DNA of 64,000 nucleotides from Acidimicrobiia bacterium (GTDB lineage: Bacteria; Actinomycetota; Acidimicrobiia; Acidimicrobiales; CATQHL01): NCBI GenBank assembly GCA_009835395.1, contig VXXM01000006.1, forward strand, positions 27,632-91,631, read 5' to 3'. Within the stretch, counting starts at the first letter, position 1. The number at the start of each line of letters is the position of its first letter. Position numbers and translations under genes: made by a program. Under the pieces are notes generated by a model. That model had not been told where the DNA came from and did not search any database. It saw only the letters and a list, made by a program, of their open reading frames with translations. This document shows positions 40,578 through 42,635 of the stretch, piece after piece.

Positions 40578-42239
40578 TCAGCCGCTCCTCGTGATGACGA
40601 CCGTGTCGGCGGTCGAGGTAGCCGATCGCACGGTGATGGTGTAGCCGCGAAGGCTGAGGCTCTCACCTTCGGTGAGGAACGGGGATCGGTCAATCGTCCC
40701 GCTGCCGGTGTCGTCCCCGATCTTGAGCGGGAGTGCGCCCGAGTCAAGGGTGGAATCCACCGTGTACACCAGCACACCATCGCTTCCCCACGGGATGTCG
40801 TCGTAGCCGATCCGGCGCCTGCTCTCGACGACGATGACCTCGGTGTCCGAGAGGGGGATTGCCGCCATTGCCGTCCCGTCGCCGGGGTCGGCGACGGGGC
40901 TCAGAACGACCGTCGCGTCGCCCTCGGTGACACAGCGGACCTGACCGGTGGTGAGCCAGCCGAGTTGCCAGCGGCTCCAGGCCAGCATCTCGGGGTGGGT
41001 GACGTAGCTCGCGTTGTCGCCGATGGCCGGGTAGTAGACGTCCAACCCCATGAGACCGAATCGAGCATATGCCCAAGTCGTGCTGGCCGGCCGCTCGGGT
41101 CGGTCCACGATGTGCGGGTAGAGGTCTGCAAGGCCGAAACTGTGCGCCATCTCGTGCGCCATGACGTCACCCCAGTCGAAGGGTTCACCGGGGCGATCGG
41201 ATCTCACCCACGAGTTCACGACCGGTGCATGAGCGATGTCGTCCTCCGCCGTGGTGAGCGGCGGAGACTGAACTCCGGCAGCGCCGGCCCAGAAGTGCGA
41301 ACTCGGCATCACCACCAGCGCCATGCCGTATCCGGTGAAGTCGAGGTGTGGATCCGCCAGCCGCACGGCTTCGGCTTGAGGGGTTACTCCCACCGTGACC
41401 CACCGCCGACCGTCCCAGATCGATTGTCCGTCGAGGTTGTATTCGTCGTAGTCGTGCTCGGCGCGGAGCCAGCGGTGCAGCGGCTCGAACTGCAGGTCGA
41501 GCCTTCCGTAACTTGCGCCCTCGAGGTACGTCTCGATATGGGCGAGCGCGGAAGCCGACTCCTGGCGAGTCGTATGGGTGGCCTCGGCGTTGGGGAAGTC
41601 CAGGAACAGCACTGCGACGCGCACCGTCCCGGTCGCCCGAAGGAAGACAGGGGGCAGCGGGAATCCCACAGTGTCGTTGTGGATGCCCCGCGGTCGGCAC
41701 GCGGCATGTCCATTGCCGTCGACACCGACGGAACTCGCCGGTTCAGACTCCGCCGCGCCCGTCCGGAGCGTCAGAGGGGAACTGACCAGCCACCGCCCGA
41801 CGGTCGCGGTGGTGGGGAAGAAGCGCCGGGACGGCAGCATCCGGTCGCTCCAGGAGTTGTCCGCTAGGCGCTGCTGCAGGCCGAACTCGATCCGGCCGTC
41901 GGCGACCTTGCGGGCCACGATGCGTGCGCCCAGCGTGAGGGGGGAACTGACCAGCCAATGCCCGACCGTTGCGGTGGTGGGGAAGAAGCGCCGGGACGGC
42001 AGCATCCGGTCGCTCCAGGAGTTGTCCGCCAGGCGCTGCTGCAGGCCGAACTCGATCCGGCCGTCGGCGACCTTGCGAGCCACGATCCGCACCGTGTCCG
42101 GGCCTTCCTGGGCCTCTGTGGGATCTCCGGTGAACCCGGCGAAGAGAATTGCGACGAGAGCGGCGATCAGGAGACCAGACAGACAACGCCGCCATCGACT
42201 CGAGACTGGGGAACCAAGGCACGTGACTGTGAATTGCAT
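40578..42239 (-). CDS. Secreted M6 (immune inhibitor A-like) metalloprotease with tandem 55-aa N-terminal module
   Basis: Signal peptide; HEMAHSFGLADLY, FGLMG Met-turn, WSRWQLGW, GVLVYTVD. Confidence 0.78.
   Translation of the reverse strand: MQFTVTCLGSPVSSRWRRCLSGLLIAALVAILFAGFTGDPTEAQEGPDTVRIVARKVADGRIEFGLQQRLADNSWSDRMLPSRRFFPTTATVGHWLVSSPLTLGARIVARKVADGRIEFGLQQRLADNSWSDRMLPSRRFFPTTATVGRWLVSSPLTLRTGAAESEPASSVGVDGNGHAACRPRGIHNDTVGFPLPPVFLRATGTVRVAVLFLDFPNAEATHTTRQESASALAHIETYLEGASYGRLDLQFEPLHRWLRAEHDYDEYNLDGQSIWDGRRWVTVGVTPQAEAVRLADPHLDFTGYGMALVVMPSSHFWAGAAGVQSPPLTTAEDDIAHAPVVNSWVRSDRPGEPFDWGDVMAHEMAHSFGLADLYPHIVDRPERPASTTWAYARFGLMGLDVYYPAIGDNASYVTHPEMLAWSRWQLGWLTTGQVRCVTEGDATVVLSPVADPGDGTAMAAIPLSDTEVIVVESRRRIGYDDIPWGSDGVLVYTVDSTLDSGALPLKIGDDTGSGTIDRSPFLTEGESLSLRGYTITVRSATSTADTVVITRSG
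41767..42089 (-). repeat. 165-nt tandem duplication encoding two near-identical 53-aa modules
   Basis: 41767-41924 vs 41932-42089; RIVARKVADGRIEFGLQQRLADNSWSDRMLPSRRFFPTTATVG(H/R)WLVSSPLTL. Confidence 0.95.
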
Positions 42240-42260: not shown

Positions 42261-42635
42261 TCAGGCGGCGGCGCAGCTTGCGTGCATGATCATTACATGG
42301 GGGACGAGACGCCGGGCGACCGGGTCCACGGCCAGGGCGAGGCTCTCGAGGGTCAGAGCGCCGAGTAGGGGTAACGAGCCGTCCTCGCCGAAGGCCACCT
42401 GGGTCGTGACGCTCTCGCCGCTTACCGTCGCCCGGGCCTCGCCGACATCCGCCTCGAACAGCCGACCGTCAGCGAGTCGAAGCCTGCGCCTGTAGGTCGG
42501 TTCGACGCCGATCTCGCGCAGCACGCAGGCCGGCAGTGAGGTGTAGAAGGCGCCGGTGTCGACCAGCGCCTCGACTTCCACGGACCTCTCGCCGCTCAGA
42601 TCAGTGATTCGCAGCGGCCATTCGAATGTCCCCAC
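42261..42635 (-). CDS. Clan AA (retropepsin-like) aspartyl protease
   Basis: ALVDTGA catalytic motif, C-terminal LLGALTLE; GGAGG before GTG. Confidence 0.85.
   Translation of the reverse strand: MGTFEWPLRITDLSGERSVEVEALVDTGAFYTSLPACVLREIGVEPTYRRRLRLADGRLFEADVGEARATVSGESVTTQVAFGEDGSLPLLGALTLESLALAVDPVARRLVPHVMIMHASCAAA

Follow-up and report, generated by a model that had tools for sequence, protein, structure and literature searches.

A duplicated, strongly basic module on a secreted M6-like metalloprotease of Acidimicrobiales, and its candidate role as a cell-envelope anchor

The locus and the gene model

The DNA analysed here (the window) is a stretch of 64,000 nucleotides from an Acidimicrobiia bacterium (assembly GCA_009835395.1, contig VXXM01000006.1, positions 27,632 to 91,631). 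The gene under study encodes a secreted M6-like metalloprotease, in which two near-identical copies of a 53-amino acid (aa) module stand between the signal peptide and the catalytic part (Table 1). This module is presented below as a candidate non-covalent anchor to the cell envelope, and the rival explanations are weighed against the same data. The genome to which the window belongs comprises 3.16 Mb in 95 contigs (70% GC).

A stored gene call for the locus (P0153, 501 aa) starts at a GTG codon (V53) within module 1, and so lacks the signal peptide and part of module 1. The longer start, giving 553 aa, was supported by orthologues of 553-555 aa that share the same signal peptide. The A|Q(E/D) context of the likely cleavage site also occurs ahead of the first module in paralogues. 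An N-terminal hydrophobic segment was found in 124 of the 150 best family representatives, the set used for the counts of copy number and position, which is biased to multi-copy, near-consensus members.

Table 1. Features of the metalloprotease locus (window coordinates).
Feature	Coordinates	Strand	Evidence
Whole gene: secreted M6-like metalloprotease with N-terminal module pair, 553 aa	40578..42239	-	Open reading frame list; syntenic orthologues of 553-555 aa
Signal-peptide-like N-terminus, aa 1-43, hydrophobic core LLIAALVAILFAGF, likely cleavage TEA|QE	42111..42239	-	Sequence reading
Module copy 1, aa 50-103, VRIVARKVADGRIEFGLQQRLADNSWSDRMLPSRRFFPTTATVGHWLVSSPLTL	41931..42092	-	Tandem Repeats Finder; genome search (116 bits); profile A1 (103 bits)
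Module copy 2, aa 106-158; H->R and 8 synonymous codons relative to copy 1	41766..41924	-	Tandem Repeats Finder; genome search; codon comparison
Acidic Ser/Gly/Ala-rich linker, aa 159-180	41700..41765	-	Composition; low model confidence
M6-like (thuringilysin/InhA-like) metallopeptidase region with C-terminal beta domain, aa 181-553	40581..41699	-	TIGR03296; AlphaFold2; Foldseek
Zinc-binding motif HEMAHSFGLAD (HExxHxxGxxD), aa 362-372	41124..41156	-	Sequence; alignment of 75 homologues
Upstream neighbour: 124-aa retropepsin-like aspartic protease (DTGA motif)	42261..42635	-	Asp_protease_2, 23.7 bits (cut-off 24.3 bits)

The repeat pair and its evolution

Tandem Repeats Finder reported one array at 41767-42086, with a period of 165 nt, 1.9 copies, 94% matches and zero indels. 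The 53-aa cores (R51-L103 and R106-L158) differ by a single residue, H94 versus R149 (CAT/CGG), and by 8 synonymous codons, and the two-residue spacers (GA / RT) are also unlike; Gly-Ala stands between the two modules. The excess of synonymous over non-synonymous changes (8 to 1) indicates strong purifying selection on the copies. The first-pass annotation, made from the letters of this stretch, had described the two near-identical modules after the signal peptide, their period and their mostly synonymous differences, all of which was reproduced; its statement that the duplication is recent was not borne out.

Two copies are present in every orthologue of the protease, and in each orthologue private substitutions are common to both copies: V (K-V-ADG) and M (DR-M) here, S in P0155 (QQR-S-ADN) and G in P0157 (LA-G-NSW). 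A one-off recent duplication was rejected for these reasons, and the pair was taken to be old and repeatedly homogenised by concerted evolution. In the 134 representatives with two copies, the halves of one protein share 80% identity; between proteins the value is 61%, be it for two first halves, two second halves or one of each; the halves are thus without positional specialisation. In this genome only two intact pairs are ~98% identical (the one in this gene and one on contig C4) and 12 others are 42-73% identical, so that homogenisation appears episodic and gene-specific.

Sequence, charge and predicted fold of the module

The consensus of the module (VRIvARkLaDGRvEFgLQqR..d..WgeR.LPr.RFFPt.A.vGRWL.SSPLtl.) contains three invariant residues (E14, R35 and W46), seven further positions conserved in at least 98% of copies (R2, A5, W26, P32, P38, L47 and S49) and five arginines conserved in 77-86% (R6, R12, R20, R29 and R45). 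Each module therefore carries seven conserved Arg and two conserved Trp. A module bears a net charge of +3.7, and the charge is positive in 96% of modules. In this protein the isoelectric point (pI) of the module pair is 11.8 versus 4.7 for the protease part; across 137 representatives the medians are 11.6 for the modules and 4.6 for the passengers, i.e. the rest of the carrier proteins.

The module pair was predicted by AlphaFold2 to be all-beta (predicted local distance difference test, pLDDT, 97.3; predicted template-modelling score, pTM, 0.88), each module having a long beta-hairpin and then short strands. No known-domain identity could be assigned to it. The whole of Pfam-A was searched with 33 modules at E<=10, and gave nothing credible (three single-member chance matches, to DUF7316, PDE12-like_N and Fibre_HD); no NCBIfam model lies over the module, and a PDB sequence search with a profile built from 62 pairs returned 0 matches. 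Foldseek searches with the model found nothing convincing in the PDB (best E 0.086, TM-score relative to the query, TMq, <= 0.36) or in BFVD. The first-pass view that the module fits no named family is supported. The module is best explained as a strongly basic all-beta domain of ~53 aa that folds autonomously and is, as far as the literature was searched, undescribed; full-text searches turned up no account of a module of this kind from Acidimicrobiia or sponge symbionts, which is no proof that none exists.

The M6-like protease

The catalytic region begins 'CRPRGIHNDTVGFPLP', with a conserved CRPxG start at aa 181. In an alignment of 75 homologues (A5) the H, H, G, L and D of HEMAHSFGLAD are invariant. 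The NCBIfam model TIGR03296 ('M6 family metalloprotease domain') matches over its full profile at aa 211-492 (58.9 bits, E 7e-16), below its curated cut-off of 110.8 bits, and Pfam gave zero matches at E<=1 for the whole protein, Peptidase_M6 included. The catalytic part (aa 160-553) was modelled with a pLDDT of 91.2; the linker scored <50 over the first 13 residues of this model and 66 over the next ten. The best Foldseek match was the M6 immune inhibitor A2 peptidase 4yu6 (E 1.9e-7, prob 1.0, TMq 0.56), and the only significant PDB matches were four 4yu6/4yu5 chains (E 1.9e-7 to 4.4e-6, prob 1.0, TMq 0.52-0.56).

The protein shares with M6 peptidases (immune inhibitor A / thuringilysin; 4yu6; TIGR03296) the HExxHxxGxxD motif, the catalytic fold and the beta domain that follows it, but its identity to the solved structure is ~10%. 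It is also shorter than InhA-type enzymes (373 vs ~700 aa) and, as inferred from these lengths, is without the N-terminal pro-domain and the VEG/MAM-like parts. It is a divergent M6-like subfamily. 'M6 metalloprotease', as the gene was first called, stands as far as the zinc motif, the full-length profile match and the 4yu6-like fold go, and was softened to 'M6-like' because the TIGR03296 score is below cut-off and Pfam has no match. All protease homologues found are annotated as hypothetical, save P0359, which is named only for its SLH domain. In one homologous protease of 553 aa (P0251), the slot at aa ~40-170 holds two copies of a different unnamed module of ~65 aa, which is Cys/His-rich (CFEHHKFG..PVDVAK..W.HD.IGCYL.LDD.AL) and has no Pfam match.

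Distribution of the module

A profile search covering 61 related genomes was carried out; because its first stage is capped, the counts from it and from the phylum-wide search below are lower bounds. The genome of the window contains ~41 copies on ~20 open reading frames, nearly always as adjacent pairs. All 17 of the other genomes of the genus carry the module (8-62 copies), as do the three genomes of the sister genus (20-31 more divergent copies), giving 21/21 genomes of the family with 8-62 copies. The 40 other families of the order gave no module, save one weak match (E 7.5e-5) in G029, and none was found in 200 genomes drawn evenly across the phylum. When the profile was run against 1.84 billion representative proteins, 1,644 module-bearing clusters were obtained at E<=1e-3 and 1,278 at E<=1e-10. 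Their source names are 'hypothetical protein' or refer to a passenger domain, and precomputed Pfam annotation never lies over the module. Of the two outcomes that would have spoken against the first-pass reading, neither was seen: the module has no Pfam match and, on these counts, is not confined to this protein.

The close relatives are labelled 'MAG: Acidimicrobiales bacterium', and a scan of contigs with the single protein as query found only close Acidimicrobiales relatives. One homologue is labelled Candidatus Poriferisocius. Eukaryote-like proteins have been reported as enriched in sponge Acidimicrobiia and described for sponge Actinobacteriota (PMC11706023). The Poriferisocius label and a passenger repertoire like the one in that report are indirect indications of a marine-invertebrate (sponge) symbiont; the link to sponge-associated Acidimicrobiia, which the first-pass annotation had mentioned, is supported only indirectly, by the metagenome labels, the Poriferisocius homologue and the partner domains.

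The module also occurs on a contig of probably different ancestry. The LRR carrier P0119 sits on a 33-kb contig (68% GC), 8 kb downstream of a ThyX gene that has no homologue in 31 Acidimicrobiales genomes and whose nearest named relatives are Chloroflexi, Dehalococcoidia and Tepidiforma proteins (74-81% identity). On the modest evidence of this one neighbouring gene on one contig, the module has likely spread horizontally between phyla. On the ENA contig L046 (108 kb), two LRR-plus-module genes (935 and 983 aa) lie in positions 1-22808, among IS110, IS21, IS1595 and Mu-type transposases and a group-II-intron-type reverse transcriptase; this mobile-element-rich setting is consistent with horizontal spread.

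Within genomes, module genes were seen in paralogue clusters extending over tens of kb (G012:C1:359068-385522, G017:C3:78849-100422 and G002:C10:1246396-1282236), and the genome of the window has one at C82:13533-16294 (minus-strand ORF offsets). Such clustering suggests local tandem expansion.

Architecture of the carrier proteins

The 150 representatives carry two (132), four (13), three (4) or five (1) copies, i.e. two or four in 145 of them. Single-copy carriers were found outside this pattern: the paralogous M6-like protease on contig C54, P0272 and P0276. The modules follow the signal peptide in 117/150 (median start residue 44) and stand at the C-terminus in 13/150; a further 18/150 consist of little else.

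Passengers were recorded for 94 representatives and include RCC1-like propellers (27), LRR (8), SLH (5), FN3 (4) and ankyrin (3), with PD40/DPPIV_N, CAP, cadherin, Calx-beta, trypsin-like and PGA_cap domains among the remainder. In the genome of the window the passengers are Amidase_3, PGA_cap with VanY, RCC1 with a second metalloprotease type, FN3, a GmrSD_C-like nuclease with Excalibur, PPC and several unknown domains, and in other genomes YkuD (P0208), an alpha/beta-hydrolase and Macro. Carriers of the 'AQRLADGRTEF' subtype have trypsin-like, M10-like, Big_2 and GLUG/CARDB passengers. Two giant Ig/cadherin/Spondin adhesins (2,493 and 4,152 aa) bear four copies at their extreme C-terminus. 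The module thus occupies a terminal position on exported proteins with many unrelated passengers, as expected of an anchoring domain, and these include enzymes of peptidoglycan hydrolysis or remodelling (Amidase_3 and VanY in the genome of the window, YkuD in P0208). A role as pro-domain or chaperone of the protease was rejected because the passengers are too diverse.

Other anchors are nearly absent from the carriers. An LPXTG-like tail was found in 0/150 and a C-terminal transmembrane segment in 1/150. Each genome of the family has one sortase; the reading of the carriers as sortase substrates was rejected because none of the 150 has an LPXTG-like tail.

Two carrier types were noted separately. 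The second protease family of the genome of the window is represented by a carrier on C37 (2519-5063, minus-strand ORF offsets; module copies at G000:C37:10508-10876, + coordinates), in which the module pair is followed by an RCC1-like propeller and a HELAH metalloprotease-like C-terminal domain ending ...FRDGGC. Proteins with N-terminal SLH and a C-terminal module pair, with little between, were also found (P0108, P0105, P0101; G003:C1:109337-110923; G017:C2:79644-80030), even in genomes without CsaB; they may act as bridges or be relics.

Exchange of the module with known anchors

The slot between signal peptide and passenger was compared among homologous passengers. Protease orthologues with the module pair are 73-83% identical in the catalytic part. 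In the next-closest proteases, P0248-P0250 (63-66% identical), a signal peptide is followed by three SLH repeats and the same 'CRPRGI..TVGFPLP' catalytic start, so that the SLH repeats occupy exactly the slot of the module pair. Many further protease homologues have SLH, SLH with RCC1, or PD40 with SLH, and RCC1 and PD40/DPPIV_N passengers occur with either SLH or the module. A second exchange was seen in the amidases: the Amidase_3 protein of the family consists of a signal peptide, the module pair and the amidase domain, and in its homologues from other families (69% identity in G058, 57-59% in G035 and G054) and in a paralogue from the same genome (C91) the module slot is taken by a lipobox or an uncleaved transmembrane segment with a Thr/Pro-rich linker. 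The module is thus interchangeable with SLH in the protease family, and with lipobox or transmembrane tethers plus linker in the amidase family.

The same replacement is visible at the level of genomes. The 21 module-bearing genomes have 0-2 SLH matches (0 in the genome of the window), and none of them encodes a PS_pyruv_trans/CsaB-type pyruvyltransferase (PF04230). In five other families of the order there are 7-59 SLH matches, in each case with a CsaB homologue that often lies beside the SLH genes, and no module, bar the weak match in G029 mentioned above. SLH anchoring depends on a pyruvylated wall polysaccharide made by CsaB (PMC6081394, PMC10435577, PMC5817068). Since they have no CsaB and 0-2 SLH matches, the module-bearing genomes were taken to have lost, or never to have had, the SLH/CsaB system and to use the module on the same passengers; the ligand of the module cannot, in genomes without CsaB, be the pyruvylated polymer.

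Comparison with known modules

The module resembles SLH (PF00395) in being a unit of ~55 aa that occurs in short tandem sets, after the signal peptide or at the C-terminus, on many unrelated exported passengers, and in having important conserved arginines (PMC5817068 and PMC6081394 for SLH). It differs in sequence and in fold: no relationship to SLH was detected (whole protein at E<=1, 33 modules at E<=10) with the same Pfam library that does detect SLH in P0248, P0108 and others, and SLH is helical and forms a trimer of three repeats (PMC6081394), whereas the module is predicted to be all-beta and comes in twos.

A 2018 catalogue of non-covalent wall-binding modules of monoderm bacteria lists LysM, SH3b, CWB1, CWB2, ChW, WXL, PG_binding_1, SPOR and CW_7 (PMC5817068). 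Like these, the module is a short repeat on autolysins, proteases and adhesins; the catalogued modules are often basic, and ChW, CWB1 and WXL have a conserved Trp. Unlike them, it is matched by none of their profiles (PG_binding_1/2 included) in any of the 33 modules at E<=10, found no structural counterpart in the PDB and occurs over a very narrow taxonomic range.

Dockerins are built of Ca-binding helical segments of ~22 residues that bind cohesin proteins. Type I dockerins share with the module an internal duplication, halves that are kept alike, and an occurrence on many passengers at either end; the module differs in being 53 aa long, beta and very basic, and has no Pfam dockerin match, and no search for a cohesin-like partner was made.

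Proposed role and alternative explanations

With confidence slightly above even, the module is interpreted as a lineage-restricted non-covalent anchor to the cell envelope, analogous but unrelated to SLH. The reading draws on the slot exchanges, on passengers that act on peptidoglycan, on the terminal position of the modules, on the lack of other anchors and on the opposite charges of module and passenger. In monoderm bacteria, proteins bound non-covalently to the wall usually combine an acidic passenger with a very basic module at one end. The first-pass annotation had proposed surface anchoring or host-ligand binding, by analogy with SLH or choline-binding repeats, from the position of the module; surface anchoring is now the most likely role on comparative grounds, chiefly the slot exchanges, and host-ligand binding a less likely but live alternative. 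Envelope binding itself, and the nature of the ligand, are what we infer from these comparisons of sequences.

The anchor would act as follows. After Sec export and cleavage of the signal peptide, the module pair (pI ~12) would bind something anionic in the envelope of the producer cell; peptidoglycan or a wall-linked polymer is the most likely target, an anionic membrane glycolipid another possible one. This would hold the acidic M6-like protease at the cell surface behind a short flexible linker, and the same handle would display ~20 other passengers per genome (RCC1-like propellers, LRR, ankyrin, FN3, cadherin adhesins, proteases, a secreted nuclease and peptidoglycan enzymes). The copies would work in twos, through avidity or as a pseudo-dimer, and would be kept alike in some genes by gene conversion. 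In this Acidimicrobiales family the module would take the place of the SLH/CsaB system or of the lipid and transmembrane tethers of related lineages.

Several points weigh against this interpretation. The occurrence of the module on the contig with the Chloroflexota-like ThyX means that a lineage-specific wall polymer cannot be the ligand, which should instead be common to both lineages (for example peptidoglycan, some widespread anionic constituent of envelopes, or a molecule of the host). If the module has crossed phyla among probable sponge symbionts, a ligand from the host would fit as well; the SLH-plus-module proteins look more like a bridge between two ligands than like redundant anchors; and many passengers are eukaryote-like domains that are usually assumed to act on the host. 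Support of the endolysin type for wall binding is missing, since no phage relatives with the module were found in two scans of IMG/VR, which, as the search patterns were narrow, is a weak negative.

A broader proposal is put forward tentatively, and is more doubtful than probable: the module may be a new fold that is exchanged horizontally as a 'surface-display handle' among unrelated bacterial phyla that live in marine invertebrates (Acidimicrobiales and Chloroflexota so far), may bind a conserved envelope or host glycan, and may mark the host-facing proteome of each genome (eukaryote-like repeat proteins, proteases and giant adhesins), with SLH/CsaB wholly displaced in one family.

The strongest rival, itself unlikely, is that the Arg/Trp-rich pair binds an anionic component of the host or its matrix (a sulfated mesohyl polysaccharide or a cell-surface glycan) and so delivers effectors and enzymes to the host. 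Such a handle would account for the patchy range of the module (one Acidimicrobiales family and a Chloroflexota-like contig), for the dominance of eukaryote-like passengers (RCC1, LRR, Ank, FN3, cadherin and CAP) and for the bridge-like SLH-plus-module proteins, and its strong positive charge would suit sulfated glycans. Peptidoglycan amidase, VanY and YkuD, however, make little sense as passengers on a host matrix, and the devices with which the module is exchanged (SLH, lipid and transmembrane tethers) all serve self-retention. Moreover, the SLH-using relatives that are probable symbionts with the same passengers show no extra host-binding module, and the giant adhesins would be left without any cell anchor.

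An improbable alternative is that the duplicated pair acts like a dockerin, plugging passengers into a surface receptor protein or lattice (an S-layer or a scaffold), the two halves offering a dual binding mode. The preference for two or four copies (145/150), the interchangeable halves (61% identity either way), their homogenisation within proteins (80% on average) and the position at either terminus of many unrelated passengers would all be expected of such a system. No candidate receptor was identified, however, and single-copy carriers exist (the C54 paralogue, P0272 and P0276), homogenisation is missing from most pairs in this genome, the all-beta module matches no dockerin model in Pfam, and extreme basicity with conserved Arg and Trp is more typical of polymer binding.

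That the pair is a tag read by a dedicated secretion, folding or modification system, or a removable pro-region, would agree with its usual position directly after the signal peptide and with the many proteases among the carriers, but is very improbable: modules also stand at the extreme C-terminus and in four copies, the passengers vary much more than those of a pro-domain would, the domain is predicted with confidence to fold and is kept by strong purifying selection (8 synonymous versus 1 non-synonymous change), and no associated system was seen next to the gene.

If the module is an envelope anchor, the function class is familiar, and the novelty lies in the domain and its fold, in where it occurs and in what it can reveal, as a marker, about the displayed proteome. 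How unculturable symbionts present eukaryote-like proteins to their host is an open question, for which studies so far lean on Pfam domains (e.g. PMC11706023); a module found on ~20 exported proteins per genome, and in ~1,600 clusters, could serve as a sequence-only predictor of surface-exposed proteins. The module appears to have displaced SLH/CsaB and lipid tethers in one Acidimicrobiales family, and would provide an evolutionary case of one envelope-anchoring system replacing another on homologous passengers. It is also a structural target, as a domain without a structural relative in the PDB, and could become a new anchor with which to display proteins on the surface of Gram-positive cells.

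Additional observations at the locus and in the assemblies

In the genome of the window (G000), module pairs were seen at contig ends or together with N-runs and frame breaks: C4 (1-1400), C9 (11570-11980 and 32100-32570), C14 (11800-12250) and C21 (end). The repeated module appears to cause assembly breaks, so that some 'frameshifted' carriers may be artefacts.

The aspartic protease gene and the M6-like gene share a strand, the former being 21 nt upstream. The two genes may be co-transcribed, and whether the aspartic protease belongs to the feature is uncertain. At the orthologous locus L045, a gene of 123 aa stands at the position of the aspartic protease.

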